Shown: positions 39,091 through 63,539 of the stretch, piece after piece | Position numbering within the stretch: the stretch's first letter is position 1 | How the letters are laid out: every line of letters starts with the position of its first letter | NCBI GenBank assembly: GCA_944322325.1 | Contig: CALUOQ010000006.1 | Location: 75,134 to 139,133 of the forward strand | DNA length: 64,000 nucleotides | From: an uncultured Alloprevotella sp. | GTDB taxonomy: Bacteria; Bacteroidota; Bacteroidia; Bacteroidales; Bacteroidaceae | Reading direction: 5' to 3' | The notes under the pieces: generated by a model | The model's input: only the letters and a program-made list of their open reading frames with translations | Told to the model about the DNA's origin: nothing | Databases searched by the model: none | Made by a program: the position numbers and the translations under genes

Positions 39091-39187
39091 GTCCCCGGAA
39101 ACAACAAGTACTACGACAGAAAATCCTATCGTAGTCCCAGAAATTTCTGTCGTAGTACTTGTAAAAATGGACGTAGTCACGTAAAAG
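39091..39187. repeat. Family-A element, copy A7
   Basis: 'caagtactacgacagaaaatcctatcgtagtcccagaaatttctgtcgtagtacttgtaaaaatggacgtagtcacgtaaaa'. Confidence 0.8.
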
Positions 39188-47014: not shown

Positions 47015-47370
47015 CCTAAAATAACGAAGAATCGGCGAAAAAAACGCGACTTCCTTGCTCGCTTTTGAAATTAGCCGTATATTTGCCCTTAGAAAAAGGC
47101 TGTATCGGTTCGATCGGGGGTCTCATCAATAATATCTGAATACCGAGAAAGCTACTCCGCTCAATGGCGGGCCGACACGACGCAGTCGGGGTCGGATTAC
47201 AGAGAACGGAGAGGCACTCAAATCTTACTTTATCTCGGAGTTCCATCACATCGCCGGTACAGCCTCTTTTCTTTTTTTTCGCCCGGCCCTGCCTGCCGCA
47301 TTCTTCCTTCCGTTTTCTGAATCCCGTCTGCTGCCCGACCGCATAGCATCCGTCTTTCGCGTAAATACGT

Positions 47371-48170
47371 ACAGCTTTTGCGCCACGCGTCGCCCTGCCC
47401 TCGCGCTCCCTGAAACCGAACCCACGTAGGGGCGCGCCGACAGGCACGCCCGCGAAACCGATTTCGTCCGAACCAGCCCGGCACCCGTGCGATGTGTGCG
47501 CCGGGCGGGCGTGCCTGTCGGCGCGCCCCTACCTGCCTCGCGGCCACCGCGTCATGCGCCGCCCTGCCTTCGCGCTCCTTGAAACCGAACCCACGTAGGG
47601 GCGCGCCGACAGGCGCGCCCGCGTACTCGACTTCGTCCGGACCAGACCGGAACCCGTGCGACGTATGCGCCAACCGGGCGTGCCTGTCGGCGCGCCCCTA
47701 CCTGCCTCACGGTCTTTGCGCCATGCGCCGCACGGACCTCGATTTTACAAGTACTACGATAGAAATTCCTATCGTAGTCTTAGGATTTTCTATCGTAGTA
47801 CTTGTTCTGTACGGGAACTACACTTGTTATTCCTGCGACGGAACCCACGTAGGGGCACGCCGACAGGCACGCCCGCGAAACCGATTTCGTCCGAACCAGC
47901 CCGGCACCCGCGCGACGTATGCGCCAACCGGGCGTGCCTGACGGCGCGCCCCTACCTGCCTCGCGGCCACGGAGTCACGCGCCGCCCTGCCTTCGCGCTC
48001 CTTGAAACCGAACCCACGTAGGGGCGCGCCGACAGGCACGCCCGCGAAGCCGACTTCGTCCGAACCAGCCCGGCACCCGCGCGACGTATGCGCCAACCGG
48101 GCGTGCCTGTCGGCGCGCCCCTACCTGCCTTGCGGCTTCAACGTCCTCATGGCTGCGGCGGCGCGCCATG
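47371..48170. repeat. Tandem array of four GC-rich 107-nt hairpin units (family B)
   Basis: The hairpins lie at 47426..47532, 47595..47701, 47849..47955 and 48018..48124. Each has 27-nt arms GTAGGGGCGCGCCGACAGGCACGCCCG / CGGGCGTGCCTGTCGGCGCGCCCCTAC (0-2 mismatches) around a conserved 53-nt loop. The linkers are conserved as well. The period is 169 bp, and 254 bp where A8 is inserted. Confidence 0.85.
47741..47830. repeat. Family-A element, copy A8, nested inside the family-B array
   Basis: 'ttttacaagtactacgatagaaattcctatcgtagtcttaggattttctatcgtagtacttgttctgtacgggaactacacttgtt'. Confidence 0.8.
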
Positions 48171-48199
48171 CAAACACACAGCGGCCTGCGCTTAGCGCC

Positions 48200-48757
48200 C
48201 TACTGCCAGTACTTGCAGTCCAGCTCGAGGAACACGGAAGTATAGGGCAAGAGCAAGCTCGTCTTGACGATGACCACGTTGAACGTGCGGCTCACGCTGT
48301 CCAGCCGGTTAATCAGGTCCTCGTGCCGCACGGCCTTCACGTCCCAGCCCTTCAGCAACTTGGCCGTCTCGGCCTTGTACGCCTCAATGCCCGGGCAGTT
48401 TGCGTCAGTCAGGTCCTGTAATTCCAGGTCCTGATACACGTGGGGCCTCACGTGCGGGCTGTCATTCACGGCTTTAACGAGGTGAGCCATGACGTCGGCG
48501 TATGGGCCGTCGGCATACAGCGTCGTGATGCCCTCCCGCGCCTGTAGGGGATAGGCCATGTCCGTCACGACGATCCAGTTCCGGTGCCCGAGCAGGGGCA
48601 GCAGTTCTTCGAGTTTCGTTTTCCAGTCTTTCATGTTGGATGTGCTTTGTTCTGCTTGCGGATGGTTGCCTGGCTCGGCGCCTCCGCCCTGACAGGCCGT
48701 GAGGGCGCCCAAGGCGAACGCCATTCCCGCGCAGATGGGTTTAACGTGAAGTTTCAT
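48200..48757 (-). CDS. RbsD/FucU-like (sugar mutarotase family) lipoprotein
   Basis: 185 aa. Has a lipobox 'GALTAC'. 'LLPLLGHRNWIVVTDMAYP' aligns by eye with the 'L.E.GHGDEIVI.DA.FP' motif of FucU/RbsD. The C-terminal 'VVIVKTS...PYTSVFL' resembles the family end. Confidence 0.55.
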   Translation of the reverse strand: MKLHVKPICAGMAFALGALTACQGGGAEPGNHPQAEQSTSNMKDWKTKLEELLPLLGHRNWIVVTDMAYPLQAREGITTLYADGPYADVMAHLVKAVNDSPHVRPHVYQDLELQDLTDANCPGIEAYKAETAKLLKGWDVKAVRHEDLINRLDSVSRTFNVVIVKTSLLLPYTSVFLELDCKYWQ

Positions 48758-48792
48758 TTTAAGTTTTAGCGTAGAGATGAATAATTACAGAG

Positions 48793-48800
48793 CAAAGGTA
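48793..48800 (-). promoter_or_regulatory. -7 box TACCTTTG upstream of the RbsD/FucU-like gene
   Basis: 35 nt upstream of ATG 48757. Confidence 0.45.
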
Positions 48801-48807
48801 CGAATTT

Positions 48808-49746
48808 CTACTCAGGTTCCACCTCCATGGATGGCACCCATTGGCGGCGGAAGTCCTCGGGCCACTGGTGCGTCTCGCGCTGAAAGAAGCGCCTGAAATA
48901 GTTCACGTCCGGTAAACCCAACTCGCGCACAATTTCAAGAATAGGCCTATCCGAATAAGCCAGCATCTGCTTCGCCTTAAGTATATACCAATCATGCATC
49001 ACCTGTAGCGGCGTCACGCCGGCCACGTCGCTTGTGACTCGTTGCAGCTTTCGCATGGACAGTCCCAGCATCTCGGCGTAATCATTTACTTTAAGCGCCT
49101 CCTTGTAGTGCTGCTCCAGCAATTGCTGAAAGCGGTAAAACGTGTGCAGTTGTTTTTGACTTTGAGACTTCTGGCTGTCCGGCCAAACACAGTGCCGCCT
49201 GAAAAACACGAAAAGCAGCGTGAGGTGAGCCGCCAGGCAGTCCCAATGCGCATCCAGGAACTTGCCCGTCGTCTGTTCCCGCCCGATGCGGTCCAACAAG
49301 TCGCGCAGTTCGTCCTCGGCCTCGGGCGGCACGTCGCAGTAGGGTACACGCCGGTAACGGTTGAACAGGCCGAATTCAAAATCCTCGGCCAGCTGCGCGT
49401 TGACTAAGGGCAGCGCGTCGCGCCCCAACAGCAGGCTGACGCCCGCCTCGCCACACATATTATTATAAGCGTGCATCTGGTCGGCCGAAAGGAAGAATAC
49501 GCGGCCCGGGCGTACCTCATGCGGCTCGAAGTCGACGATGTGCGTCCCCCGGCCGGCGGTGAACCACAACACGGAGTGGAACCCGTGCGAGTGCACCGTT
49601 TCCTTCATCTTCGGATGGACAACCGCCGCCTCGTCGAAGGCCGCCACGTCGCAATAGAACGGGCTTCCCGACCCGTCGTTCAGCTCGTAATGCAACCGTT
49701 CTGCCCCGTCCACTTTTCGGATCGTTCTTTCGTAACAATGGTTCAT
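48808..49746 (-). CDS. AraC family transcriptional regulator (cupin N-domain + HTH_18)
   Basis: 312 aa. The C-terminal double HTH includes 'VNDYAEMLGLSMRKLQRVTSDVAGVTPLQVMHDWYILKAKQML' and 'ILEIVRELGLPDVNYFRRFFQRETH'. Confidence 0.85.
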   Translation of the reverse strand: MNHCYERTIRKVDGAERLHYELNDGSGSPFYCDVAAFDEAAVVHPKMKETVHSHGFHSVLWFTAGRGTHIVDFEPHEVRPGRVFFLSADQMHAYNNMCGEAGVSLLLGRDALPLVNAQLAEDFEFGLFNRYRRVPYCDVPPEAEDELRDLLDRIGREQTTGKFLDAHWDCLAAHLTLLFVFFRRHCVWPDSQKSQSQKQLHTFYRFQQLLEQHYKEALKVNDYAEMLGLSMRKLQRVTSDVAGVTPLQVMHDWYILKAKQMLAYSDRPILEIVRELGLPDVNYFRRFFQRETHQWPEDFRRQWVPSMEVEPE

Positions 49747-49763
49747 GGCTTCCGTTTTGCCCG

Positions 49764-49771
49764 CAAAAGTA
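49764..49771 (-). promoter_or_regulatory. -7 box TACTTTTG upstream of the AraC gene
   Basis: 17 nt upstream of ATG 49746. It shares the divergent intergenic region with the cassette promoter. Confidence 0.4.
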
Positions 49772-49878
49772 GGGGAAATCTCCGAAACGACGAGGGAAAA
49801 CCGTCCCTCACCTGCATTTTGTCCGAAAATTACGGAAATCTGTCGCGTTTTTACTTGGCGAATGCAGGCATCGCCCCC

Positions 49879-49886
49879 TAAATTTG
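49879..49886 (+). promoter_or_regulatory. -7 box TAAATTTG upstream of the glycosyltransferase/rSAM/peptide cassette
   Basis: 32 nt upstream of ATG 49919. It is the only such box I see before 53964 on this strand. Confidence 0.45.
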
Positions 49887-49918
49887 CAAGCGAAGAAACA
49901 AACTAAAAATCAACAGTC

Positions 49919-52321
49919 ATGCCCACCTCGCCCGCCATATCCGTCTGCATGTCGATGTACAACGCCGCACCCTACCTGCGCGAGTGCATCGACAGTGTGC
50001 TGGCCCAGACGTTAGCGGACTTCGAGTTCATCATCGTCGACGACGGGTCGGAGGACGACAGCGCGACGATCGTGGCCTCGTATGCCGACCCGCGCATCCG
50101 GCTGATACGGGGCGATCACGACTACGTGGCCTCGCTCAACCGCTCGCTCGACGAGGCGCGGGGCCGCTACGTCGCCCGCATGGACGCCGACGACGTGATG
50201 CACCCCGAGCGCCTGGCGCGGCAGTTCGCCTATATGGAGGCGCACCCCGACGTCGACCTGACGGGTGGTCGCATGACGGCCTTTCGCGACGACATCGGCA
50301 CCCCGCTGTTCGAGCTCTACGTCCGCGAGGGGCGCCTCGACCTGGCCGACCTGCTCGACGGCTGCTGCATCTGCCACCCCACGGTGATGGTGCGCACCGA
50401 GCGCCTCAACGCGCCGGCCCGGCTGCGCTATCGCAAAGAGTGGGTCTACGCCGAGGACTACGACCTGTGGGTCGAGATGCTCGGCCACGGCCTGCGCCTC
50501 GTCAACCTGCCCGACATCATGGCCTACTACCGCCTCCACTCCGGCCAGATCACCGCCTGCCGCCGCGACGAGCAGGGCGAGAAGTCAGGCGCCATACGCG
50601 AACGCGCCCTGCGGCTTATCGGCCAGCTGACGGACGAAGCCTTCACCGAGGAGGCCGACGTGCCCGCCTCCACCAGGCGGCTGACCGTCGTCATGCCCTT
50701 CCTGAACGAAGGCGAGGAGGTCGGCCGCACCGTGCGCAGCATCCGCCAGACGGCGGGCGACTCGGTCGACATCCTCGTCCTCAACGACGATTCCGACGAC
50801 GGCTACGACTACGAGGCCGACCTGGCCGGACTCGGCGTCACCTACCTGCACAACCGCCACCGTCTCGGCGCCGCCTTAGCCAAGGAGCGCGGCGCCCGGC
50901 TGGCCCGGACGCCTTATTTTATGTTGCTCGACGCCCACATGCGTTTCTACGAGCCGGGCTGGGCCGACTACGTGGCCGACGAGCTCGACCGCGACTCCCA
51001 GCGCCTCCTCTGTAGCAAGTCCATCTCGCTGCAAAAGGACGAGCAGGGCCACGTCGCACCGGCCCCCGACACCTGCTCGCCGCAGGGCGCCTACCTGATG
51101 TTCCTCTCGCAAAAGAACGTCCCTGCCATCGACTGGAACAACTACGAGGAACGCCTGCCCACCTGTGCCGAAAACCAGATTCCCTGCGTGCTCGGTGCCG
51201 GCTATGCCACCTCCAAGACTTACTGGCAAAAGATTCGCGGCCTCCAGGGCCTCGTCCATTACGGCTGCGAGGAGGCTTACATCAGCATCAAGGCCTGGAA
51301 GGAGGGCGGGGGCTGCTACCTACTGCCCCGGCTGGCCATCGGGCACATCTACCGCAAGGCTTTCCCTTACAAGGTCCACTCCTTCCTTTACCTGTATAAC
51401 TACCTCGCCATCAGCGAGCTGCTTTTCCCCACGTCCGAGCGGTACTTCGCCAAGGCCGTGGCGTGGCAGCTGAACAAGAAAGCCCTCCACACGACGCTGG
51501 AGTTCATGGACACACGCCGCGAGCTGAACCAGGAACTGAAAGCCTGCTACCGCACCCTCCGCCGGCACGACTTCGCCTACGTCAAGCGCCTGAACGAAAT
51601 TTGCCGCAAGGTGGCCCAGCGCGTCAACCGCATCTCCGACGACGAGGCGGCACAGGCCATGGACTTCCTGACCGAGCGCCGCCAGACCCTCGGCGGCATC
51701 GGCTTGTTCGACGGCCTGGCGGGCGCCCTCATCGCCACCCTGCTGTACGTCGAGGCCGGCCACGAGACGCAGGAGAGCCTCGCCGCGGAACTGTGGGAGC
51801 GCCTCTCGTCCCAGCTGTCGCAGCCCCACAACCTCTCGTTCCGCTCGGGGCTGACCGGCGTCGGCTGGGCGCTGATTTACGCCGCCTCCCACGGGCTCAT
51901 AGAGGACAGCATCGACGCGGAGCTCGCCCTGATCGACCGGCAGGTGGCCACGCTCAGCCTGCGGCGCTGCGACGATCTGTCGTTCCTCGACGGGCTGGGC
52001 GGCATCTACGCCTACGTCACGGCGCGCCTCGGCTACGACCGGCGGCGCGGCCTGCCCGAGGCGACGTTCGCGCCCGGTTTCCTCGAGGAGATGGACGCCG
52101 AGGCACGCCGCGTGCTGACCGACTCCGACGACTGGCGCACGAAAAATTTCGCCGGACAGTTCACCGAGCGCCACGCCGACGACTGGGAAATCCTCGCCCC
52201 GGAGTTTCCCGAAATCGTCGAACTGCCCGACTACCTGCCCAACGACGTAGGCAAATGGCAGCTCACGCTGCCGGGCATCGTCGGCTCGGTCATCAACAAA
52301 CTCATCAACGAATTCCATTAA
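49919..52321 (+). CDS. Tandem GT-A glycosyltransferase fused to a LanC-like helical-repeat C-terminal domain
   Basis: 800 aa.
- Module 1 (residues about 6-230) is a classic GT2 ('ISVCMSMYNAAPYLRECIDSVLAQT', 'IIVDDGSED', DxD 'RMDADD').
- Module 2 (about 255-485) has 'VVMPFLNEGEEVGRTVRSI', a DxH at 'LLDAHMRF' (50930..50938) and 'GCEEAYISIKAWKEGGGCYLLPRLAIGHIYRK', which resembles the polypeptide-GalNAc-transferase (GT27) catalytic core.
- Residues about 590-705 carry three 'G(L/I)xxG(L/G)xG' repeats reminiscent of LanC, without obvious Zn ligands. Confidence 0.8.
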   Translation: MPTSPAISVCMSMYNAAPYLRECIDSVLAQTLADFEFIIVDDGSEDDSATIVASYADPRIRLIRGDHDYVASLNRSLDEARGRYVARMDADDVMHPERLARQFAYMEAHPDVDLTGGRMTAFRDDIGTPLFELYVREGRLDLADLLDGCCICHPTVMVRTERLNAPARLRYRKEWVYAEDYDLWVEMLGHGLRLVNLPDIMAYYRLHSGQITACRRDEQGEKSGAIRERALRLIGQLTDEAFTEEADVPASTRRLTVVMPFLNEGEEVGRTVRSIRQTAGDSVDILVLNDDSDDGYDYEADLAGLGVTYLHNRHRLGAALAKERGARLARTPYFMLLDAHMRFYEPGWADYVADELDRDSQRLLCSKSISLQKDEQGHVAPAPDTCSPQGAYLMFLSQKNVPAIDWNNYEERLPTCAENQIPCVLGAGYATSKTYWQKIRGLQGLVHYGCEEAYISIKAWKEGGGCYLLPRLAIGHIYRKAFPYKVHSFLYLYNYLAISELLFPTSERYFAKAVAWQLNKKALHTTLEFMDTRRELNQELKACYRTLRRHDFAYVKRLNEICRKVAQRVNRISDDEAAQAMDFLTERRQTLGGIGLFDGLAGALIATLLYVEAGHETQESLAAELWERLSSQLSQPHNLSFRSGLTGVGWALIYAASHGLIEDSIDAELALIDRQVATLSLRRCDDLSFLDGLGGIYAYVTARLGYDRRRGLPEATFAPGFLEEMDAEARRVLTDSDDWRTKNFAGQFTERHADDWEILAPEFPEIVELPDYLPNDVGKWQLTLPGIVGSVINKLINEFH

Positions 52322-52328
52322 ACTACCT

Positions 52329-53638
52329 ATGAAGAAAAGTCTCTACAACTTCCTGTTTCTTTGCGAGGGCGACTGGGTCTTGTTCAACCTCGCCACCGAG
52401 GAGATGAGCCTCCTCGACGCCAAGGTGAAGCAAATCTACGAGGAAAACGACATGGAGGGTATCCGCAGGCTCCACCCGGACTTCTACACCTTTCTGACGG
52501 AGAAGCGCTTCGCCGTACCCGACGACGAGGACGAAGCCGCCGCCTGCATCGCCCGCTGGGACCGCGAGGACAACGACCCGACCACTTTCTCGCTCACCGT
52601 TAACCCTACGCTCGACTGCAACATGCGCTGCTGGTACTGCTACGAGCGCCACCACACGGACCGCACCATGAGCGCCGAGGTGGCCGCAAGCGTATTCAAG
52701 TTCGTGGAAAGGAAGCTGGCCGAGCCCGAACTGAAGCACTTCAACCTCGCCTTCTTTGGCGGCGAGCCTTTAGTGGAGTTCCAGTCGGTGGTCAAGCCGC
52801 TGGTGGACCACACCTGCGCCGTGGCCGACCGGTTGGGCAAGGAGGTCGGCCTCAGCTTCACGACGAACGGCTACCTGCTCACGCCCGACGTGCTGCAATA
52901 CCTCGCCGACACGGGGTGCCACGTCAATTTCCAAATCACGCTCGACGGCAACCAGCGCCTCCACGACCGCACACGCCACCTCGCCGACGGCTCCGGCAGC
53001 TACGCCCGTATACTCGACAACTGCCACAACCTGCTGGCGCAGCCCCGGACGAGCCTGACGCTCCGCTGCAACTATACGCAGATGAACGCAGCGACGTTCA
53101 TGGACCTCGTCCGCGACCTGCCGGACCACGGCATCACCCCGAGCGAAGCGCTCCACATCGACTTCCAGCGCGTATGCAGGACCGCGGGAACAACAAGGAG
53201 GTCGACGAGCAAATCCACCGCGTACAGCTGGTCCTCCAGCGCGACGGCTATTCCACCTCGGACGTATGGACTTTCCATAAATACCGCTGCTACGCCGAGC
53301 GCAATAACCATATTGTCGTCAACTACGACGGTAACCTGTTCCACTGCACGGCGCGCGACTTCACCCCCACCGCTGCCGAGGGCGAACTCGACGCCGAAGG
53401 GCACCTTCAGCCCAACGAGAAGTCGGCCAAGCGCGCCCAGGCCAAGTGGGACAACGACGCCTGTCGCGCCTGCACAGTCTATCCCCTCTGCGGCGGCCTT
53501 TGCAGCCAGCAAAAACTTGAGCACCTCGGCGTAAGGGGCTGCATCGCCGGACGCGACGAGAAGGCGAAACGCGAAATCGCCGAACAGCGATTGCTACAAC
53601 TGATAGAGATGGCTAAAAAACAGCCCAAACACAATTAA
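52329..53638 (+). pseudogene. Radical SAM/SPASM peptide maturase, reading frame broken near 53150..53176
   Basis: Frame 1 (52329..) gives an N-terminal extension of about 95 aa, then 'CNMRCWYCY' (CxxxCxxC, 52617..52640) and a TIM-barrel-like sequence up to 'EALHIDFQRV'. After that it degenerates into S/T/A/P/R-rich text. The +2 frame (in ORF 52916..53638) picks up 'MQDRGNNKEVDEQI...CYAERNNHIVVNYDGNLFHCTARDF...ACRACTVYPLCGGLCSQQ', the SPASM signature CX2CX5CX3C (53462..53506). Joined, the two parts make about 436 aa. Confidence 0.8.
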
Positions 53639-53661
53639 TCACTTCTTAAAAACAAACAACT

Positions 53662-53913
53662 ATGAGATTAAAGAAAAATCTATCTCAGCTTGTGGAGTCC
53701 AACTTTACTCCACTCAGTACGGACAAGGAAGGCCTTCTGCGCGGAGGCTTCGGAGCAATGACATTCGACGCAGCTGCTCATGTCGCTGCCCGTTCTAATT
53801 ATCTTTTTTGCAATAATGACAATTGCAATGACGGGTGCTCAAATGATTGCAATAAGTCTTGTGCTCCTCCTTCAAAGTCTGGGGAATCCGCCGCACTTTT
53901 CCAAGGATTTTAA
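53662..53913 (+). CDS. RiPP precursor-like peptide: Gly-Gly leader + CXXX-repeat Cys/Asn/Asp-rich core
   Basis: 83 aa: MRLKKNLSQLVESNFTPLSTDKEGLLRGG | FGAMTFDAAAHVAARSNYLFCNNDNCNDGCSNDCNKSCAPPSKSGESAALFQGF. It starts 23 nt after the maturase stop. Cys residues sit at 50, 55, 59, 63 and 67. The gene is visibly AT-richer than its surroundings. Confidence 0.7.
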   Translation: MRLKKNLSQLVESNFTPLSTDKEGLLRGGFGAMTFDAAAHVAARSNYLFCNNDNCNDGCSNDCNKSCAPPSKSGESAALFQGF

Positions 53914-53927
53914 GCGGTAACTGAACG

Positions 53928-53964
53928 AAGTCCGTATACCCGCAATGAGGTATGCGGACTTTTA
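53928..53964 (+). terminator. Hairpin (terminator/attenuator) directly after the precursor gene
   Basis: 11-bp stem aagtccgtata / tatgcggactt (one G-U pair) with a 12-nt loop, followed by TTAG. The U-tract is weak, so partial read-through into the OMP gene is plausible. Confidence 0.45.
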
Positions 53965-54003
53965 GTGCTCCATTGCCCACAGCGATCTGAAAACTATCCA
54001 CCT

Positions 54004-56949
54004 ATGAAAAAAATTCTAACCCTCCTTCTTGCCCTGTTATCCCTACCTTTGGCCCTTTCGGCACAGAAGTGCTGGATTGAGTTCCGCGTGTACGAAGAAA
54101 TCACCGGTAAAGAAATCGAGGCCCCGCACTTCACCCTTATTTACGAAGACTCCATTGAGGTTCCCGCCGAGTACAAGTTGCAGGAGGCCACCTATGTTAA
54201 TTCGCCTAAGACTTACCGTGCACATACTTTGGTGTTCGACTATCGCAAGGGGAAGTACACGCTTCGCGTCGAAAAGGAGGGTTATGAATCGGGGAGCAAG
54301 GATTTTCGCGTCGTCTCGCGACGCCTCACGGGCTTTGGCCTCGGTACCATCTTGCTGAAGAAGCGGCGCCACGTCGAGCTGGGCGAGGCCACCGTGCGGG
54401 CCACCCACATCAAGATGGTGATGCGCGGCGACACCGTCGTCTACGACGCGGCGGCCTTCGACCTGGCCGAGGGGTCGATGCTCGACGCCTTGGTGGAGCA
54501 GCTGCCGGGCGTGGAGCTGAAAGACGGGCAGATACGGGTCAACGGAAAGTTTATCGAGAGCCTCCTGCTGAACGGCGAGGATTTCTTCGCGGGCAATCCG
54601 AAGGTCGCCCTGGAGAACCTGCCGGCCTACACGGTGAAGCAAATCAAAGTGTATGACCGCGCCGAGCGCGACGCCTACCTCAAGCCGAAAGGGGCGGACG
54701 GCAAGGTCATCGGCGCCGACGAGCACATGGTGATGGACGTGCAGCTGAAGAAGGCCTACGCTACGGGATGGATGGGCAACGTCGAGGGCGGATACGGCCT
54801 GCCCGACGACCGCTATCTCGGCCGGGCCTTCGGTCTGGGCTATAGGGACAAGGCGCGCTTCTCGGTCTTTGCCAACCTGAACAACATCAAGAACACGCAA
54901 ATCGGGCGCAGCAGCGGCCAGTGGAGCGGGGGCTGGCCGCAGGACGGCGAGCTCGACGTGAAGATGAGCGGGGCGGACTACTACTTCAGCCGCGGCCGGG
55001 CGTGGGTGGCCGGCGACGTGCTGATCACCCACGAGGAGCCCAAGGTGGAGCAGAAGCAGAGCGCCGTCTCCTTCTTCAACTCGGGCGACGTCTACGAGCG
55101 GCTGCACAGCGTCAGCCGGGAGCGCAAGTTCCACCTCATCACGGCACACCAGTTGCGCTTCACGGACGACAATTTCTATTTCCAGGTAATACCGCGGCTG
55201 GACTACCTGCACAACGACGTCAGCCGCCTGAGCCGCGCCGCGCAGTTCACCGCCAACCCCACCGAGGCCTACCGTATGGAGTCGCTCGACTCCCTCTTCG
55301 CCCTCGGCGGACTGCGCTCGCCCTTCGCCGTCAGCCTGCTCAACCGCACCGGGCAGATGCAGGAAGGCCCCGAAAGCTGGATTATCGCCGGCATCAACGC
55401 CAGCGCGACCATCAGCATCCCCCACCTGAACGACAACGTTAAACTCTACGCGGACGGCGAGTACCGCCGCGACACCGAACGCCCGCTCACGACGTGGAGC
55501 CGCGCCTTCGGGCCGCAAAGCACGGCAGGCAGCACGGCGCAAAACGTCCTCCAGAACAAGGACTACGACGCGCGGCAATACCACGTCAAGGCCGGAGCGA
55601 GCTATACCTACTGGTGCGTCCCCTACCGCGAACACGACACCCACGCCTTCATCGCGCAACCGAAGTTCGACTACGCCCGCGACCACCACGACCGCGCGAA
55701 CACCCTGTGGCAGTTAGAGGAAAGCCTGACCGACGCCGCGGCGGGCCAGGGCGTCGTCCTGCCCTCGACGATCGACCCCGCCCGGCTGGCCCTCGACCTC
55801 AACAATTCCTATCACTCCGCGCTGGCCCAGGACGACTATGCGCCGGGCGTGGAGCTGGACTACCAGTTCCTGCCCGAAGAGGGTGACCTTCTGAGGGACT
55901 ACACCGTATCGCTCGACCTGACGCAACACCTGCGCCGCGAACGTCTCGACTACGAGCGCGACGGCCTCGACACGACCGTGACGCGCTGGTCGGGCTCGCT
56001 GGAGCCCACCGTCGGGCTGGAATACCGCGACAAGCACCCCGAGACGCCCACCCGCCTGACCCTGACCTACGGCTACAGCCAGGCAATGCCGAGCCTCTAC
56101 TACCAGCTCGGCACGGTCGACGACAGCGACCCGGCCAACGTCTACGTCAACAACCCGGGCCTGCGCCGGGCCTCCACCCACAACGCCAGCCTGGAGTTCA
56201 CCCGCTTCTGGCAGGCCACGCACCGCAACCTGAGCGTCAACGCCAACTTCAGCCACACCAACCGTGCCGTGGCCCAGGCGCGCCACTACGACCGCCAGAC
56301 GGGCGTCAGCACCTGGGTGCCCGAGAACATCGACGGCAACTGGAACACCGACGCCGCGGTGCAGTTCACGCTGCCCTTTGGCCGCGACGAGGCCTTCCAG
56401 TTCCAGACGGCCACGACCGGCGCCTTCGTCCACTCGGTGGACTACGCCACCGACACCGAGGAACTGACGCGCAGCGTCGTGGACAACCTGCGGCTCGGCG
56501 AACGGCTCGGCCTGACCTACCGCGTCAACAAGCACACCTTCGGTCTCAAGGGCAGCCTGGCCTGGCTGCGCAGCCGCTCGGAGCGCGCCAATTTCGACGA
56601 CATCTCCGCCTTCGACGTCACGGCGGGCGCCAACGTATTGCTCAACCTGCCCCAGGAGTGGCAAATAGGCACCGACATGACCCTGTACTGCCGACGCGGA
56701 TACAGCGACGCGACGCTCAACACGACGGACTGGGTGTGGAACGCCTCGCTCAGCAAGTCCCTGCTCGACGGCAAGCTGTCGCTGAAACTCGACGCCGTGG
56801 ACATACTCGGCCAAATCAGCAACGTGCAGCACACGGTCAACGCGCAGGGACGCACCGAAACCTGGACGAACGCCGTGCGCAACTACGCCATGCTCCACGT
56901 CACCTACCGTTTCCACATCCTCCCCAAGAAAAAAGCCGCCGACAACTGA
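54004..56949 (+). CDS. Outer-membrane beta-barrel family protein (CarboxypepD_reg-like N-domain + plug-like segment + large barrel)
   Basis: ORF 53965..56949, start at ATG 54004 (MKKILTLLLALLSLPLALSAQ). 'GDTVVYDAAAFDLAEGSMLDALVEQLPGVELKDGQIRVNGKFIESLLLNGEDFF' is the TonB-receptor-plug-like motif of the Bacteroidetes 'OMP_b-brl_3'-type family as I recall it. The C-terminus has the aromatic strand 'LHVTYRFHI'. Confidence 0.7.
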   Translation: MKKILTLLLALLSLPLALSAQKCWIEFRVYEEITGKEIEAPHFTLIYEDSIEVPAEYKLQEATYVNSPKTYRAHTLVFDYRKGKYTLRVEKEGYESGSKDFRVVSRRLTGFGLGTILLKKRRHVELGEATVRATHIKMVMRGDTVVYDAAAFDLAEGSMLDALVEQLPGVELKDGQIRVNGKFIESLLLNGEDFFAGNPKVALENLPAYTVKQIKVYDRAERDAYLKPKGADGKVIGADEHMVMDVQLKKAYATGWMGNVEGGYGLPDDRYLGRAFGLGYRDKARFSVFANLNNIKNTQIGRSSGQWSGGWPQDGELDVKMSGADYYFSRGRAWVAGDVLITHEEPKVEQKQSAVSFFNSGDVYERLHSVSRERKFHLITAHQLRFTDDNFYFQVIPRLDYLHNDVSRLSRAAQFTANPTEAYRMESLDSLFALGGLRSPFAVSLLNRTGQMQEGPESWIIAGINASATISIPHLNDNVKLYADGEYRRDTERPLTTWSRAFGPQSTAGSTAQNVLQNKDYDARQYHVKAGASYTYWCVPYREHDTHAFIAQPKFDYARDHHDRANTLWQLEESLTDAAAGQGVVLPSTIDPARLALDLNNSYHSALAQDDYAPGVELDYQFLPEEGDLLRDYTVSLDLTQHLRRERLDYERDGLDTTVTRWSGSLEPTVGLEYRDKHPETPTRLTLTYGYSQAMPSLYYQLGTVDDSDPANVYVNNPGLRRASTHNASLEFTRFWQATHRNLSVNANFSHTNRAVAQARHYDRQTGVSTWVPENIDGNWNTDAAVQFTLPFGRDEAFQFQTATTGAFVHSVDYATDTEELTRSVVDNLRLGERLGLTYRVNKHTFGLKGSLAWLRSRSERANFDDISAFDVTAGANVLLNLPQEWQIGTDMTLYCRRGYSDATLNTTDWVWNASLSKSLLDGKLSLKLDAVDILGQISNVQHTVNAQGRTETWTNAVRNYAMLHVTYRFHILPKKKAADN

Positions 56950-56977: not shown

Positions 56978-57038
56978 AACAAGTACTACGACAGTTTTTC
57001 CTATCGCTGCGATAGGAAAAACTGTCGTAGTACTTGTT
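56978..57038. repeat. Family-A element, copy A9: perfect 61-nt palindrome
   Basis: aacaagtactacgacagtttttcctatcgc-t-gcgataggaaaaactgtcgtagtacttgtt. The 30-nt arms have zero mismatches. It begins 29 nt after the OMP stop codon. Confidence 0.9.
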
Positions 57039-57044
57039 TGGACC

Positions 57045-57140
57045 GATGGGGCTGATGGAGCCAATGGGAGTAATGAGGCCAACGAGTAATCGCCCGCCAC
57101 CCATAAGTCCCATTACTCCCATTGGCCCCATCAGCCCATC
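57045..57140. repeat. 'PIGPI'-type long hairpin (family C)
   Basis: The left arm gatggggctgatggagccaatgggagtaatg and right arm cattactcccattggccccatcagcccatc are near-perfect inverted repeats about 35 nt apart. Confidence 0.75.
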
Positions 57141-57188
57141 CCCTTCATTTCCCGCTGCGCCGGCACGGCCCATGTCGCCGACAATCCG

Positions 57189-57196
57189 TATTTTTG
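57189..57196 (+). promoter_or_regulatory. -7 box TATTTTTG
   Basis: 17 nt upstream of ATG 57214. Confidence 0.45.
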
Positions 57197-57213
57197 CGCT
57201 GAATTTTCCTACC

Positions 57214-57915
57214 ATGTCCTCCGCTGGATTCGATTTCAAGCAGTTTCGCGTGGCGCACGACCGCTGCGCCATGAAAGTGGGCACCGACGGCGTGCTGCTC
57301 GGTGCCTGGGCCGACGTGGCGGGGGCGCGCCGCGTGCTCGACATCGGCTGCGGCTCGGGGCTCATCGCCCTGATGGTGGCGCAGCGCACGGCGGCCCGCA
57401 TCGTGGGCGTAGAGATCGACGCCGCAGCCGCCGCGCAAGCCGCCGAAAACGCAGCCGCCTCGCCCTGGGCCGGGCGCATCGACATCGTGCATGCCGACCT
57501 GACGGACTTCGCTCCGGCGGAACGGTTCGACCACGTAGTGACCAACCCACCCTTCTTCGACGAGGACCTGCTGCCGCCCGACGCGGCGCGTGCCCGGGCC
57601 CGCCACACGTCGGGCCTCACCTTTGCCCGTCTGCTGCGCGAGGCGAGCCGCCTGCTGGCGCCCGGCGGCCGGCTACACACCGTCCTGCCCGCGTCAGCCT
57701 ACGACCACTTCGCTTACTACGCCTGGGAACAGCGTCTCTACCCCTACCGCCGCACGGACGTCGTCACGCGCCGGGGCAAACCCGTGCGCCGCGTGCTGCT
57801 CAGCTTCGAGCAGGGCCGCGAGGGCCCCGTCCGCCACGACGAACTGGTGCTCTGCGAGCGGGGCGGCGAGCGTACGGCCGACTACCGCCGGCTCACCGAC
57901 ACCTTCTACCGCTGA
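57214..57915 (+). CDS. tRNA (adenine-N6)-methyltransferase, YfiC/TrmN6-like
   Basis: ORF 57034..57915, with the real start at ATG 57214 (MSSAGFDFKQFRVAHDRCAMKVGTDGVLLGAW). Has the SAM motif 'VLDIGCGSGLIAL' and the N6-MTase motif 'VVTNPPFF'. Confidence 0.8.
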   Translation: MSSAGFDFKQFRVAHDRCAMKVGTDGVLLGAWADVAGARRVLDIGCGSGLIALMVAQRTAARIVGVEIDAAAAAQAAENAAASPWAGRIDIVHADLTDFAPAERFDHVVTNPPFFDEDLLPPDAARARARHTSGLTFARLLREASRLLAPGGRLHTVLPASAYDHFAYYAWEQRLYPYRRTDVVTRRGKPVRRVLLSFEQGREGPVRHDELVLCERGGERTADYRRLTDTFYR

Positions 57916-57966: not shown

Positions 57967-58581
57967 ATGAAAATAATCGCCATTGCCTGCAACTACGCGG
58001 CACACAATAATTTGCCCGGCACTCCGTTTTTTACTTCGGAGGAGCCTGTCGTCTTCTCGCGCGCCGACTCGGCCCTGCTCAAGGACGGCAAACCGTTTTT
58101 CATCCCCGACTTCGCGGCCGACTGCCGCTGCCAGGCGGAACTCGTGGTGCGCCTCAGCCGGCTGGGCAAGAGCATTCCCGAACGCTTCGCCTACCGCTAC
58201 TACGACGCCGTCACCGTGGGCATAGGCTTCACGGCGGGCGCCCTGCTTGAACGCTGCCGCCGCGAGGGCCTGCCCTGGGAACTGGCCACCGGGTTCGACG
58301 GTGCGGCCGCCGTGGGGCGCTTTGCTCCGCTCGAGGGCCGCGACATGGCCGACCTCCGCTTCCGGCTGGAAGCCGACGGCACGGAAGTGCAGCGCGGATG
58401 GAGCGGCGACATGCGCTGGAGCGTCGACAGGCTCATCGCCTACGTCAGCCGTTTCTACACCGTGCGCCAAGGCGACCTCCTCTTCACCGGTACGCCCGTC
58501 GCCGCGGTGCCCGCACGCATCGGGACCCGGCTGGACGGTTTTCTGGACGGGGAGCGCCGGATTACGATAAAAGTGAAATAA
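57967..58581 (+). CDS. Fumarylacetoacetate hydrolase (FAH) family protein
   Basis: 204 aa. 'ACNYAAH', 'QAELVVRL' and 'GDLLFTGTP' are typical of the short FAH/2-keto-4-pentenoate hydratase-like family. Confidence 0.8.
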   Translation: MKIIAIACNYAAHNNLPGTPFFTSEEPVVFSRADSALLKDGKPFFIPDFAADCRCQAELVVRLSRLGKSIPERFAYRYYDAVTVGIGFTAGALLERCRREGLPWELATGFDGAAAVGRFAPLEGRDMADLRFRLEADGTEVQRGWSGDMRWSVDRLIAYVSRFYTVRQGDLLFTGTPVAAVPARIGTRLDGFLDGERRITIKVK

Positions 58582-58585: not shown

Positions 58586-61500
58586 GTGTCAATGAACCGA
58601 ATCATAGTCTCGTTGCTGCGCCGCGTGTGGCTGGCCGTCCTCGTTTGGCCGCTGGCTGCGCGGGGTGGCGACTTCGTCGACCTGCGGCCGGCCGACTACC
58701 CCGTGGGCGACGCGCTGCCCCGCTACACGACGGTCGTCCCGCTGGGGCGCGACTACGCAGCGGGCGGCTACACCGTGCGGGCTGACTATCCCGAATATGC
58801 CCCGCTGACCCCGGCGGAAACCAGACGCCTGCGCCGCGCAGGCATCACCCTGCCCGACACGCTGGAGGTCACCACGCGCCTCGGCGTCAGCCGCAAGGAA
58901 GGGCAGCTCGACGTGACGGTGCTGCCTTTCGTCGTGCGCGACGGACGGCCCATGCGCCTCGTGTCGTTCAAGCTGGCGGTCGAGCCGCGCAGCGCCGACC
59001 GCGCCCGCGCCCGGCGCACAGTCAGGTCCGCCGCCGACCGATGGGCAGACAGCTCGGTGCTGGCCGAAGGACGCTGGGTCAAGATTCGCGTCAGCGAGGA
59101 GGGTATTTACCAGCTCTCCGACGCCCAACTGTCGCAGATGGGCTTCGACCGCCCTGACCGCGTCCGCCTCTACGGTTACGGCGGCCGACCGCAACCCGAG
59201 ACGTTCGACTTCAGCTCGGCCGACTGCCCCCCCGACGACCTCGAGGAGGTGCCCCTCTACCGCCGCGAGGGCTCGCTCCTGTTCTTCGCCGAGGGCACGC
59301 AGCGCTGGACGCTGAGTGCGGGCCGCTGGACGCACACGAACAATCCCTACTCGGCCTATTCCTACTACTTCCTGACCGAGGGCGAGGCGACACCCGCCAC
59401 CCTACCGACACTCGACGCCCCCGCCAACAGCGGACAGACCGTTGCGCGCGTCACGGCCCATGCCGTCGTGGACAACGACGCCTACAGCTGGTTTCCCGGC
59501 GGCCGGCGCTTTTACGACAGCTACGACTTCGCGCAAGGCAACAGCCGCACGTTCAACGTCGCCACGCCGGGCGTCGTCGAAGGCGAGCAGGCCCGCGTAG
59601 CCGTACGCTTCTCCGCGCACTCGTCGACGGGCAGCGTGACCGTAGGCGTGGCGCTGGGCAACGCGACTGTCGGCACGCTCAACATCGCGCGCTCCGACGA
59701 ATCGGACCTAGCCCGCGAGACCGAATCGACTTTCACGACGACGGCACTCCGCGAGAGTAACGCCTTCCGCCTTACCACACCGACGGGCGTCCCGGCCCGC
59801 CTGGACTACATCCGCATCAGCTACGAACGGCAACTGACCGCCGGGAGCACGCCCCTTGTCTTTACGACCGCCACGTCGGGGCCGGTTACCTTCGAAATCA
59901 GCAACGCCGACACCCGGACGCGCGTATGGCGGATCGGGCAGGCCGGCGACCCCGTGGCCGAAGTGGCTGCGACGCTCGACGGCACCACGCTGCGCGCCCC
60001 CGTCAACCGGGGCGACCGGCGCTACGTGGTGTTCGACGCAACGGCCACCTACCCCGCCCCCACCGTCGTGGGCACCGTCGAGAACCAGAACCTCCACGCC
60101 GACCGCGACGTGGATATGGTGATCATCGTCCCGGCCAGCGGCACGCTGACGCAACCCGCCGAACGCCTCGCCGAAGCCCACCGCAGCGCACAGGGACTCA
60201 CCGTCAGGGTGGTCCGGGCCGACCAGATTTTCAACGAGTTCTCCTCCGGCACCCCCGACGCCAACGCCTATCGCCGCTACCTCAAGCTGCTGTACGACAG
60301 CAGCAGCGAGGGCCGCGAGCCGCGCTACCTGCTGCTCTTCGGCGACTGCTTGTGGGACAACCGCATGGTGACGCCGGAAAACCGGGGGAAGAACCCCGAC
60401 GACTACCTGCTGGCCTACGAGAGCGAAAACTCACTGAGCGAAATCGACTGCTACGTGACCGACGACTTCTTCGGTATGCTCGACGACGGCGAAGGCGCCA
60501 ACCTCCGAACGGAGAAAATGGACGTGGCCATCGGACGCTTCCCCTGCACCACCGAAAGCGACGCCCAGACACTCGTCAGCAAGGCTATCGCCTACCTGAA
60601 CAACGAGGCGGCAGGCCCGTGGCAGAACTTGCTCTACTTCCTGGCCGACGACGGCGACGGCAACCTGCACATGGAGGGCGCAAAGCGCGCCATGGACGCC
60701 ATCAGCGGACAGGCGGACGACTACGTCATACAGCCCGTGTTCTGGGACGCCTATCCCCGCGAGGTCACGTCGACGAGCCGCAGTTATCCCCAAGTCGAAG
60801 AACTGCTCCACACCGCCATGGCCGACGGCGCCTTAGTGATGAACTATACGGGGCACGGAGACCCGAACCGCGTGTCGCACGAAAATGTGCTCACCTTGGA
60901 GGATTTCCGGACGAACCGCACGACGGGACTGCCGCTCTGGGTGATGGCCTCGTGCGAGGTAACGCCCTACGACAACGGCGAGGACAACATGGGCCGCGCC
61001 GGCATACTCAATCCCGCCGGGGGCGGTATCGCGTTCATCTGCGCCTCCCGCACGGTCTACGCCAACCGCAACGAGGAACTCAACATGGCCCTTATGCCCG
61101 AACTCCTGGCACGCACGGCCGACGGACGGCAGCAGACCATGGGCGAAGCGCTGATGCACGCAAAAAACGCACTGGTCGAGTCGGGCGCGGACCAGACCTC
61201 GAACCGCATCAAGTACGCCCTGACGGGCGACCCCGCCCTGCCGCTCGCCACGCCGAGCGAGGGCATCGTCGTGGACAGTATCGACGGACGCCCCCTCGCT
61301 GACGGCGAAAAACTGACCTGGGCGGCGGGCAGCACGGTGCGCCTGAGCGGCCGCGTCGTGACCGACGGAGCCACGCCCATCGACGACTTCCGCGGCGTGG
61401 TCAGCGCCACCGTGTTCGACCGCGCCGAGACCGTGACGTGCCGCAACAACGACGGGTCGGCCGACGAGCCGTACGTGTTCACCCAGCGCAATAAGGTGAT

Positions 61501-62375: not shown

Positions 62376-63539
62376 ATGAAAGCAATTCGTGAAATCGCCC
62401 TGACCCTAGCCGGAGCCACCGTAGCGCTCAGCGCCGTCGCCGACGATAAGGAGGAGATGTTCAATCCGATTGTCACTTCCGTCATTTCGCAAAGCATCGC
62501 CCCCGACGCGCGGGCCGGCGGCCTCGGTGATGTCGGCGCGGCCACCGACCCCGACGTCAACTCCCAAGCCTGGAACCCGGCCAAGTATCCCTTTTGCATC
62601 AGCCGCGCCGGCGTGTCCATCGACTATACCCCCTGGCTCCGCTCCATCGTCAATGACATCGACCTGGCCTACCTTGTGGGCTACTATCGCCTCGGCGACT
62701 ATCAGGCCCTCAGCGCTTCAGTGCGCTACTTCTCCCTCGGTTCCGTCATGACCGACGACCCGAACATGACGGTCAAGCCCTATGAGATGGCCTTCGACGT
62801 TGCTTACTCGCGCATGCTGAGTGAGCGCTTCTCGGCCGCCGTCGCGCTGCGCTACATGTACTCCGACATGAGCGGACACTACGACGACCAGGTGACGGCC
62901 GGTTCGGCTTTTGCCGCCGACATCGCCTGTTACTACAACAACTACGTCATGATGGGCAACCGGGAGTGCCAGATTGCCTTCGGTGTAAACCTGAGCAACA
63001 TAGGCAGCAAGATCAATTACGGCGAGGACTACTCCTATTTTATCCCGACCAACCTTCGCATCGGCCTGAACTACATGATTCCGCTCAACGAGTACAACCG
63101 TATCTCCTTCTGCGCCGACATCAACAAACTGCTGGTGCCCTCGAAACCTCTACAGGAGGACAACGAGACCGACGAGGACTTCCAGGACCGCGTACAGCAG
63201 GAGTACTACGACGTATCGTCGATATCGGGCATATTCAAGAGCTTCGGCGATTCACCCAACGGCTTCAAGGGCGAACTGGAGGAAGTGCAGTGGAGCGTCG
63301 GCGCCGAATATACGTACAACGACAAGTTCACTGTGCGCGCCGGCTACCACCACGAGAGCGAGAGCCAAGGCAACCGCAAATACTTCACCTTTGGCGCGGG
63401 TTTCCGCATGAGCGTTTTCTCGATCGACGCGGGCTACGTGTGGTCCACGGCGGCGAGCAACCCGCTCGACCAGACGCTCCGCGTTTCCCTGGCGTTTGAC
63501 TTCGACGGCATCCGCGACCTGTTCCGCGGCCGTCGCTAA
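62376..63539 (+). CDS. porV: Type IX secretion system outer-membrane protein PorV (LptO)
   Basis: 387 aa. Has the N-terminal 'SIAPDARAGGLGDVGAATDPDVNSQAWNPAKYPF' PorV signature and a FadL-like barrel. Confidence 0.85.
   Translation: MKAIREIALTLAGATVALSAVADDKEEMFNPIVTSVISQSIAPDARAGGLGDVGAATDPDVNSQAWNPAKYPFCISRAGVSIDYTPWLRSIVNDIDLAYLVGYYRLGDYQALSASVRYFSLGSVMTDDPNMTVKPYEMAFDVAYSRMLSERFSAAVALRYMYSDMSGHYDDQVTAGSAFAADIACYYNNYVMMGNRECQIAFGVNLSNIGSKINYGEDYSYFIPTNLRIGLNYMIPLNEYNRISFCADINKLLVPSKPLQEDNETDEDFQDRVQQEYYDVSSISGIFKSFGDSPNGFKGELEEVQWSVGAEYTYNDKFTVRAGYHHESESQGNRKYFTFGAGFRMSVFSIDAGYVWSTAASNPLDQTLRVSLAFDFDGIRDLFRGRR

Follow-up and report, generated by a model that had tools for sequence, protein, structure and literature searches.

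A 64,000-nt stretch of DNA from an uncultured Alloprevotella sp. (contig CALUOQ010000006.1; the whole stretch is called the window) was analyzed around a short open reading frame (ORF) at positions 53662-53913 of the forward strand. The ORF translates to an 83-amino acid (aa) peptide, MRLKKNLSQLVESNFTPLSTDKEGLLRGGFGAMTFDAAAHVAARSNYLFCNNDNCNDGCSNDCNKSCAPPSKSGESAALFQGF, exactly as given by a first-pass annotation made from the sequence alone. It is the third gene of an operon-like block consisting of a glycosyltransferase (GT), a radical S-adenosylmethionine (SAM)/SPASM enzyme, the peptide, and an outer-membrane protein (OMP). Here, we propose that the ORF probably encodes the precursor, with a Gly-Gly (GG) leader, of a ribosomally made peptide with post-translational modifications (RiPP) from an uncharacterized Bacteroidales family, which would be thioether-stapled and O-glycosylated and would have a cognate outer-membrane barrel. 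The features of the locus are listed below; related loci are cited by number (L001 and so on).

48808..49746 (-), AraC-family regulator (Pfam HTH_18/AraC_binding), divergent from the cassette and syntenic in L001 and L035
49879..49886 (+), Bacteroidetes-type -7 motif TAAATTTG, 33 nt upstream of the GT start
49919..52321 (+), 800-aa glycosyltransferase, Pfam Glycos_transf_2 twice and a weak LANC_like match
52329..53638 (+), radical SAM/SPASM peptide maturase gene, split by a 1-nt deletion at ~53175/53176
53662..53748 (+), leader of the peptide, residues 1-29, MRLKKNLSQLVESNFTPLSTDKEGLLRGG, ending in GG, near-invariant among homologs
53749..53808 (+), spacer, residues 30-49, a conserved FG after the GG and then the variable, mostly hydrophobic FGAMTFDAAAHVAARSNYLF
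53809..53862 (+), Cys/Asn core, residues 50-67, CNNDNCNDGCSNDCNKSC, with Asn at -3 for three of the five Cys, inside a hypervariable stretch
53863..53913 (+), tail, residues 68-83, APPSKSGESAALFQGF, and stop codon; Ser/Pro-containing, with a hydrophobic/aromatic C-terminus as in the family
53929..53963 (+), hairpin with an 11-12 bp stem and an 8-nt loop, followed by TTTT, 16 nt past the peptide stop
54004..56949 (+), 981-aa outer-membrane protein (Pfam OMP_b-brl_3), TonB-dependent-transporter-like

The double glycine at residues 28-29 and the Cys residues at 50, 55, 59, 63, and 67 (C50-C67, DNA 53809-53862) that the first-pass annotation had pointed out are present in the translation, as are the three TGC-AAT repeats (C50N51, C55N56, and C63N64). 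A word-indexed search of 5.8 billion proteins gave six homologs with 46-99% identity, in whose alignment residues 1-31 are almost invariant and the remainder is variable. A profile search of 1.84 billion representatives, with clusters defined at 50% identity, gave 64 clusters at E ≤ 1e-3, nearly all of 56-119 aa. The family anatomy was derived from 72 sequences. The leader of ~29 aa ends in ..P-L-x4-E-G-x-L-R-G-G, followed by F-G/A, and 71 of the 72 sequences match the pattern xxGG[FY]. A variable spacer of about 10-20 residues leads to the core, which contains a median of 5.5 Cys residues (range 0-12). The tail has a median length of 25 aa, is 44% S/T/P, and ends in a hydrophobic C-terminus, with Phe as the final residue in 39 of 72. 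The first-pass description of a precursor-type peptide with a conserved GG leader and a variable Cys-rich core, lying beside a radical SAM/SPASM enzyme and a glycosyltransferase, is borne out by these homologs and by synteny.

Between divergent members of the family, the synonymous divergence of the leader is saturated (pS 0.5-0.84), the nonsynonymous divergence (pN) is 0.16-0.27, and pN/pS is 0.2-0.4. In 9-14 of 31 leader codons, the same residue is encoded by a different codon. These values indicate that the reading frame is under protein-level selection, and as judged from the alignments the ORF is a conserved, translated gene. A chance ORF in an AT-rich intergenic spacer would be suggested by the codon usage, which is unlike that of all other window genes, by the gene callers having passed over the ORF in L035, and by the lack of Pfam or NCBIfam matches. 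This explanation is refuted by the homolog alignment, the 64 profile clusters, and the leader pN/pS, since the leader protein is conserved under saturated synonymous change and dozens of divergent loci have the ORF intact and in synteny; we regard its probability as negligible. In syntenic loci, where the first-pass annotation had considered that the ORF might be absent or out of frame, it is present and in frame. The window peptide matched no Pfam or NCBIfam model (NCBIfam at E ≤ 0.01), including the GG-leader models TIGR01847 and TIGR04149, and seven relatives had no NCBIfam match even at E ≤ 1 and matched no precursor model. An exact-sequence look-up of the window peptide returned no called gene. 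An ORF identical to it is present at L035:5599-5850 and was left uncalled in the public collection; the precursors of this family are therefore probably under-annotated.

The first-pass annotation had also estimated by eye that the ORF is AT-richer than the flanking genes, and the computed G+C contents agree: 45.2% in the peptide ORF versus 66.3% in the GT, 61.2% in the radical SAM, and 63.7% in the OMP genes. The G+C content at third codon positions (GC3) is 0.405 in the ORF versus 0.73-0.91 in these neighbors, and 83-codon windows inside the window genes with GC3 ≤ 0.405 are found once in 1510. AT-rich gene starts were rejected as the cause, since in 41 other window genes the GC3 of the first 83 codons averages 0.73 (sd 0.095) and is never below 0.458. 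Within the ORF, the leader has the highest GC3 (0.52), followed by the core (0.44) and by the spacer and tail (0.30-0.31). Eight of nine Asn codons are AAT, versus 20% in the other window genes. The same island is seen in the close relative L001 (peptide GC3 0.44, flanks 0.86-0.91), and it is absent from the low-GC relatives L003 and L008, in which the peptide and flanks are all ~0.42. Across hosts of 40-63% G+C, the peptide genes of the family have 35-49%, so that a constant peptide-gene composition appears as an island in a genome with GC3 of 0.9. The G+C content of ~45% could stem from the amino-acid composition, from core alleles repeatedly acquired from lower-GC relatives, or from selection acting on the mRNA. 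Part of the island is explained by amino-acid composition; the codon choice (AAT in eight of nine) is not. If alleles originating from relatives of lower G+C had replaced the core repeatedly, this would agree with the hypervariability and with the copies on conjugative elements described below.

In the family as a whole (about 370 Cys-Cys gaps in total), the gaps are X1 (104), X4 (105), X3 (49), X5 (47), and X6 (14). C50, C63, and C67 are invariant among the six close homologs, and C55 and C59 are not. The regular Cys register that the first-pass annotation had taken as a conserved feature is thus not borne out. Its expectation that Cys positions would be conserved holds in part: the number and register of Cys vary, and a motif with Asn three residues before Cys is kept. 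Asn occupies position -3 of Cys in 59.8% of cases versus 22.7% ± 1.9% (maximum 28.8%) when residues were shuffled 500 times within each Cys-rich segment, and its frequencies at positions -4, -2, and +1 to +3 are near expectation. In 50 of 66 peptides, at least half of the Cys residues have Asn at -3; the pairs in the window peptide are N52-C55, N56-C59, and N64-C67. An N-x-C sequon, implying N-glycosylation, was rejected, as Asn at -2 occurs at 0.23 versus 0.23 expected. The conserved unit of the core, as these frequencies indicate, is Asn three residues before Cys (NxxC), not a fixed C-X3/4-C register. At an NxxC motif, the streptococcal radical SAM enzyme NxxcB joins the Cys sulfur to the β-carbon of Asn (PMC9389541).

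The maturase gene encodes the CX3CX2C motif (CNMRCWYC) and the full SPASM Cys pattern, with domain matches to Radical_SAM, Fer4_12, and SPASM (TIGR04085, 39.8 bits versus a cut-off of 27). The best NCBIfam matches of the intact L001 enzyme are TIGR04463 (186.6 bits), the geopeptide maturase model (162), CefB NF038107 (143.5), and PapB NF047865 (133.3), and the best match among solved structures is CteB (5wgg, E 9e-16). These relatives are maturases of Cys-rich peptides and thioethers. They support thioether formation, one of the chemistries suggested by the first-pass annotation, and on this homology it is the most plausible predicted reaction of the enzyme. In the window, the frame runs from 52329 to ~53175 and then shifts to a frame ending at 53638. 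The frameshift site is the TGG (Trp) codon of '...DFQRVWQDRG...' minus one G, and the two frames match the intact L001 enzyme over query residues 1-290 and 284-436. The nucleotide alignment shows that both L001 and L035 carry the missing G; the contigs of L025, L026, and L027 do not reach the site. L035 thus combines the identical 83-aa peptide with the G that the window lacks, and it has single-base deletions of its own at the equivalents of 52352 and 54007 (the latter in an A-run). In L031, the radical SAM gene is split into two ORFs. Because of these other indels, an assembly error is as likely as a real mutation. The first-pass annotation had overlooked the frameshift that the alignment with L001 and L035 reveals. 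In the contig L025 (region 1-270), which encodes a 99%-identical peptide, the 3' part of the radical SAM gene is joined to unrelated sequence, which on the opposite strand encodes LHNHPS and looks RadC/JAMM-like by eye. The junction reflects either a chimeric scaffold or another case of a disrupted maturase gene.

The glycosyltransferase has two GT-A domains. Domain 1 (residues about 4-210) contains DDGS and DADD motifs, and its match in the Protein Data Bank (PDB) by phmmer is chondroitin synthase. Domain 2 (residues about 247-510) contains DxH and a GHIYR-containing motif and matches the polypeptide N-acetylgalactosaminyltransferases (ppGalNAc-T) T10 and T2, by PDB phmmer (E 7e-13 to 1e-9) and by fold (Foldseek). 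In 64 GT homologs, D338-A-H340 and G475-H476-I-Y478-R are invariant or near-invariant, the latter within '...GGGCxLLPxxxIGHIYR'. We take these to be the metal-binding DxH and the Gal/GalNAc-T motif of ppGalNAc-T. The AlphaFold2 (AF2) model has a predicted local distance difference test (pLDDT) score of 94, and the whole protein resembles two-domain GT-A polymerases. At E ≤ 1e-20, 475 homologs were found. The C-terminal domain (about 560-800) is all-helical, and its LanC-like match covers positions 6-117 of the 350 in the profile with 20-23 bits. Lanthionine cyclase activity was rejected for this domain, as residues 560-800 contain no invariant Cys or His across the 64 homologs that could serve as zinc ligands; no LanB dehydratase was found near the cassette. 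A peptide-binding role would be a guess. For the glycosylation suggested by the first-pass annotation, the ppGalNAc-T-like domain favors Ser/Thr O-glycosylation of the S/T/P tail, and S-glycosylation of Cys is not favored; the homology and the modeled fold of the GT point to the former.

Wherever a locus extends far enough, the OMP is found together with the peptide. This constant partner, recognized from synteny and fold matches, was missed by the first-pass annotation. Its layout comprises a signal peptide, an N-terminal β-sandwich, a TonB-box-like 'LxEVTVxAT' (identified visually in the consensus), a plug-like region, and a large β-barrel. The AF2 model has a pLDDT of 82, with the barrel modeled with confidence, and the top 50 Foldseek matches are all TonB-dependent transporters. 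Pfam Plug was not detected at E ≤ 5, and a sequence search against the PDB gave nothing useful. We infer from the modeled fold and the gene neighborhood that the barrel may serve the mature peptide as its cognate receptor or as a conduit. Recognition or uptake is favored because of the TonB-dependent-transporter fold and the TonB-box-like motif. An export role is also conceivable given the translational coupling with an exporter gene in relatives, as described next.

The order GT, radical SAM, peptide, and OMP is also found in the metagenomic contigs carrying P0003, P0005, and P0006, in metagenome-assembled genomes (MAGs) of Prevotella, Prevotellaceae, Bacteroidaceae, and Prevotellamassilia, and in a Bacteroides fragilis-type locus. 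On this synteny, the cassette is a conserved operon-like unit of GT, radical SAM/SPASM enzyme, precursor, and TonB-dependent-transporter-like OMP. In L014, L017, L019-L021, L023, and L028-L034, a peptidase-containing ATP-binding cassette (ABC) transporter (PCAT; Peptidase_C39, ABC_membrane, and ABC_tran) lies downstream of the OMP, in keeping with the exporter expected from the GG leader. The OMP stop and the PCAT start often overlap, and a protein of ~130-139 aa with an N-terminal membrane helix follows the PCAT. A GT11 fucosyltransferase gene precedes the GT in B. fragilis. The four-gene form without a PCAT is also found in the L002-L006 clade. In L033 and L034, the six-gene unit is flanked by genes for a relaxase, a type IV secretion system-coupling protein, Toprim/topoisomerase, DUF3945, a helicase, and Abi_2 (flanks read: L033:19836-22403 and L034:19836-22403, plus upstream 1-9400), and judging from these neighbors the cassette is cargo of a conjugative element.

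Several relatives have rearranged cassettes. In L017:8001-11318, peptide and OMP form one in-frame fusion, probably via a frameshift; L021:3338-8315 contains GT and radical SAM fragments and two OMP genes; and in L015:1-3441 an OMP 3' end is followed by the peptide and a second OMP. L019, a record titled Eggerthellaceae bacterium, carries the full Bacteroidales-type cassette with the outer-membrane barrel in an actinobacterial MAG, and this contig is most likely mis-binned. In the B. fragilis-type L028 (1-2408), genes for a second OMP_b-brl_3 protein, an extracytoplasmic function (ECF) sigma factor, and a FecR anti-sigma factor lie ~7 kb upstream of the cassette, and a link to it is possible.

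As to expression, the Bacteroidetes-type motif TAnnTTTG occurs 39 times in the window versus 13.2 expected, a count reached in none of 100 shuffles. The copy at 49879..49886 is likely the operon promoter, as predicted from its sequence and position. The peptide gene has no such motif directly in front of it, and a scan for sigma-70-type promoters gave nothing relevant. In other clades, the position of the AraC-family regulator is taken by a GerE/LuxR-type regulator. The hairpin between the peptide and OMP genes has a minimum free energy of -25.5 kcal/mol (z -4.6) and gives a terminator-like match. Its pairing is kept by compensatory changes in three close alleles, and a hairpin of unrelated sequence occupies the same place in 11 distant loci; a hairpin is present in every locus examined. 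We regard it as a candidate attenuating terminator or mRNA-stabilizing 3' end between precursor and OMP.

The DNA of the window and L001 is 91-100% identical (~96%) over 48063-56890, except for the core stretch. At 53762-53893, the identity falls to 50% with indels, and it is 81-82% over the next 300 nt. Between the two, pN/pS is 0.11 for the GT, 0.08 for the radical SAM enzyme, and 0.40 for the OMP. Residues 17-100 of the OMP are 98.8% identical to those of the window in L035, which has the identical peptide, and 78.6% identical in L001, which has a different core; the GT distances of the two strains are alike (96.6% and 97.9%). This pattern fits co-variation of a ligand and its partner. The diversification of the core between near-identical strains, together with conjugative carriage, is the signature of a between-strain interaction trait.

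Here, we propose a mechanism for the complete cassette. The leader would guide the modifying enzymes. The radical SAM/SPASM enzyme would link the sulfur of every Cys to a carbon in the Asn at -3, as NxxcB does, which would give a string of small thioether rings. The ppGalNAc-transferase-like domain of the GT would put an N-acetylhexosamine on Ser/Thr of the S/T/P-rich tail, and GT domain 1 would extend this sugar, with fucose possibly added by the GT11 enzyme in B. fragilis. The C39 ABC exporter would then cleave after the GG and export the peptide. The outer-membrane barrel would act as the receptor or conduit for the mature peptide, with recognition or re-uptake favored over export. The hypervariability of the core would point to strain-specific ligand-partner pairs, in which the peptide may be an antagonist, a private good (e.g., a metallophore), or a signal. 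Taken further, the cassette could represent a new RiPP class of gut Bacteroidales with serial Cys-Asn thioethers, a mucin-type-like O-glycan, export by an OMP-coupled PCAT, and strain-specific core-barrel pairs that would act as a private signal, a private good, or a targeted toxin, partly carried on conjugative elements; we put this forward only tentatively and consider it less likely than not that all of these elements hold together.

Several observations weigh against this proposal. The modification chemistry is assigned throughout from homology and motifs. The intact L001 maturase scores below all curated family cut-offs (186.6 of 525 bits for TIGR04463, 143.5 of 600 for CefB, 133.3 of 340 for PapB, and 68.1 of 350 for TIGR04115), and being far under each of them it could catalyze a different reaction. 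In L018:5474-8321, the GT is directly followed by the peptide and OMP with no radical SAM gene between. The plug region of the OMP (residues 122-240) is modeled with low confidence, and it is unusual for bacteriocin clusters to pair an exported peptide with a TonB-dependent-type importer, which may serve in import, export, immunity, or sensing. The co-variation of OMP and core, which concerns three strains and adjacent DNA, could be put down just as simply to linkage. In the window itself, the radical SAM gene is frameshifted, Asn is at -3 of just three of the five Cys, and the tail has only three Ser. No PCAT, ~130-aa protein, GT11, or second precursor homolog was found within its 64 kb. The window system is thus reduced, by the 1-nt deletion in the radical SAM gene and the absence of an exporter within 64 kb. 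Unless the deletion is an assembly error, the window peptide may be unmodified, only glycosylated, or reliant on genes elsewhere. The peptide of L018 keeps seven C-x-N-x-x-C-type repeats despite the absence of an intervening radical SAM gene.

The reduced state raises the possibility, which we consider real but doubtful, that the window cassette is a nonfunctional, decaying remnant, in which the radical SAM gene is a pseudogene, the exporter and the small membrane protein have been lost, and the ORF is kept because the decay is recent. Apart from the deletion and the missing PCAT and ~130-aa homologs in the window, this is suggested by the disrupted radical SAM genes of L025 (with its 99%-identical peptide) and L031 and by the GT and radical SAM fragments in L017 and L021. 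However, the pN/pS of 0.08 for the radical SAM enzyme between the window and L001 implies strong constraint until very recently, the locus with the identical peptide has the G that the window lacks, and its own single-base deletions elsewhere suggest that such indels are assembly errors. The PCAT-less four-gene form in the unrelated L002-L006 clade may moreover be functional, relying on an exporter gene at another locus.

Two other readings concern the function of the Cys residues. The Cys/Asn core, with its CxC and CxxxC spacings as in metallothioneins, might bind a metal, so that the peptide would be exported by the PCAT and its complex taken up again through the TonB-type barrel, with co-diversification of core and receptor. 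Methanobactin MbnA with MbnT and pyoverdine with FpvA are the comparable systems. This reading would account for the constant TonB-dependent-transporter-like partner with its TonB-box-like motif (seen by eye), for CxC being among the two commonest Cys spacings, and for an OMP that evolves faster than the enzymes and whose N-terminal domain co-varies with the core allele; it has also been noted that RiPPs can be copper chelators (PMC10352776). We nevertheless consider it unlikely. The nearest relatives of the radical SAM enzyme use Cys thiols for thioethers, which would weaken thiolate binding of metals; the cassette has no metal-responsive regulator (it is of the AraC type) and no riboswitch (Rfam finds nothing there); and the S/T/P tail, glycosylated in our proposal, has no obvious role in metal binding. 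Alternatively, the GT could S-glycosylate Cys, or N-glycosylate Asn, as a SunS/ThuS-type enzyme, and the Cys repeat would then be a series of glycosylation sites, not cross-links. GT2-family domains beside a GG-leader peptide and, in relatives, a PCAT make up the parts list of a glycocin, and BAGEL4 flags areas with 'peptide S-glycosyltransferase + LanC + rSAM' in B. fragilis and Parabacteroides distasonis (PMC10352776). This is very unlikely in our view, since the 35 PDB sequence matches and the 50 best fold matches of the GT include no chain of the SunS/ThuS type, and the peptide-acting relatives that were found are O-GalNAc transferases. N-x-C is not enriched, and the nested C-X6-C disulfide hairpin is absent, with X6 in 14 of about 370 gaps. 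The radical SAM/SPASM enzyme, which belongs to the neighborhood of Cys-thioether maturases, would also need a substrate. The thioether-stapled, O-glycosylated precursor with a cognate barrel is the reading that we prefer.

Other features of the window lie around the cassette. Palindromic intergenic repeats, in which AAGTACTACGA(T/C)AG occurs as inverted pairs (stems of ~20 bp), are found at 56981-57035, 47749-47803, 39106-39160, and 15089-15164 and also at 1659, 7679, and 12806 (12 matches of the motif versus 0.01 expected). Of these, one immediately follows the OMP stop and another is on the left side of the block in common with L001; it is within the right-hand copy that the L035 contig terminates. 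A GC-rich repeat of 30 nt, CACGTAGGGGCGCGCCGACAGGCACGCCCG, is present eight times in alternating orientation at 47423-48127, within a 300-nt direct duplication (47409-47708 / 47832-48131) at the left end of the L001 synteny (~48000-48063). The long ORFs called in 47423-48127 look like repeat artifacts. An Rfam Bacteroidales-1 (6S-like) RNA is found at 47098-47270 (+) with 110 bits, and TAnnTTTG is just upstream at 47078-47085; this RNA is in line with the window coming from a member of the Bacteroidales. Downstream of the cassette are type IX secretion genes for a peptidase C25 (PorU-like, 58592-62347) and PorV (62376-63539), with no evident link to it. A methyltransferase gene (57046-57915) and a 204-aa ORF (57967-58581) lie between the cassette and the PorU-like gene.

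To our knowledge, the Bacteroidales, the Gram-negative order that dominates in the mammalian gut, have yielded few modified peptides so far. The present family is widespread, with 64 precursor clusters and 475 GT homologs, and includes the cultivable B. fragilis. If the predicted chemistry is true, radical SAM stapling would be coupled with cytoplasmic mucin-type-like O-glycosylation of a peptide, and a secreted peptide would be tied to a TonB-dependent-type barrel. In the literature searched for the family, the leader strings, and the domain combinations, no description of the leader or the cassette was found; the searches on domain combinations returned only a BAGEL4 mining paper and general reviews. 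In that survey of Bacteroidales, 'rSAM + LanC + GlyS' areas of interest were reported in B. fragilis and P. distasonis, and the LanC-like proteins lack zinc ligands (PMC10352776). Its curated biosynthetic gene clusters BGC3-5 contain pseudo-rSAM genes, and BGC3 and BGC5 have no PCAT (PMC10352776). Compared by domain content only, these areas resemble the cassette in combining a GT (with a LanC-like domain) and a radical SAM enzyme. The C-terminal domain of the present GT likewise lacks conserved Cys/His, and a B. fragilis copy of the cassette exists. The areas may include the present cassette. Unlike BGC3-5, the cassette has no pseudo-rSAM gene, and neither the precursor family nor the NxxC unit nor the OMP partner is covered by the survey.

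Among characterized systems, the cassette is like the ranthipeptides and other radical SAM thioether RiPPs (PapB/freyrasin, CteB/thermocellin-SCIFF, and NxxcB) in that a radical SAM/SPASM maturase lies beside a Cys-rich precursor. The enzyme matches the CteB structure best and matches the PapB, SCIFF, and CcpM family models, the repeated Asn at -3 of Cys equals the NxxC β-thioether motif of NxxcB, and the GG leader with a PCAT in relatives recalls ranthipeptide-type systems. It is unlike them in that the enzyme is below the curated cut-offs, the host is a Gram-negative Bacteroidales, and the cross-link is a prediction. The precursor has a long S/T/P-rich tail with a hydrophobic/aromatic end, and a double glycosyltransferase and a TonB-dependent-type OMP are further components of the cassette. 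The Cys-repeat radical SAM systems defined by Haft in NCBIfam comprise TIGR04463 (very Cys-rich peptides), CefA/CefB NF038107 (Cys at every fifth position), TIGR04115 (CXXX repeat), and TIGR04148-04150 (GG-Bacteroidales). They share the SPASM maturase and a short repeat-Cys peptide with a GG-type leader, and C-X4-C, the spacing of CefA/CefB, is among the two commonest gaps in the present family. Unlike in these systems, the enzyme scores 187 of 525, 143 of 600, 68 of 350, and 56 of 300 bits, the peptide matches no precursor model, and there is no pseudo-rSAM partner.

The glycocins (sublancin, glycocin F, and thurandacin) also combine a GG-leader peptide, a GT2-family glycosyltransferase, and a C39-ABC exporter. 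The cassette differs in lacking nested disulfide pairs, in a GT whose PDB sequence matches and top 50 fold matches include O-GalNAc transferases and no SunS, and in having a radical SAM enzyme, an outer-membrane barrel, and a Gram-negative host. As in the methanobactin MbnA/MbnT and pyoverdine/FpvA systems, a predicted secreted, modified peptide lies beside a TonB-dependent-type receptor, with a variable ligand and a receptor that diverges faster than the enzymes; unlike for methanobactin, the enzymes are a radical SAM protein and a GT, not MbnBC, and there is no sign of metal binding or regulation. A member of no curated family tested, the system would work like a radical SAM RiPP of the ranthipeptide/NxxC type with glycocin-like glycosylation.

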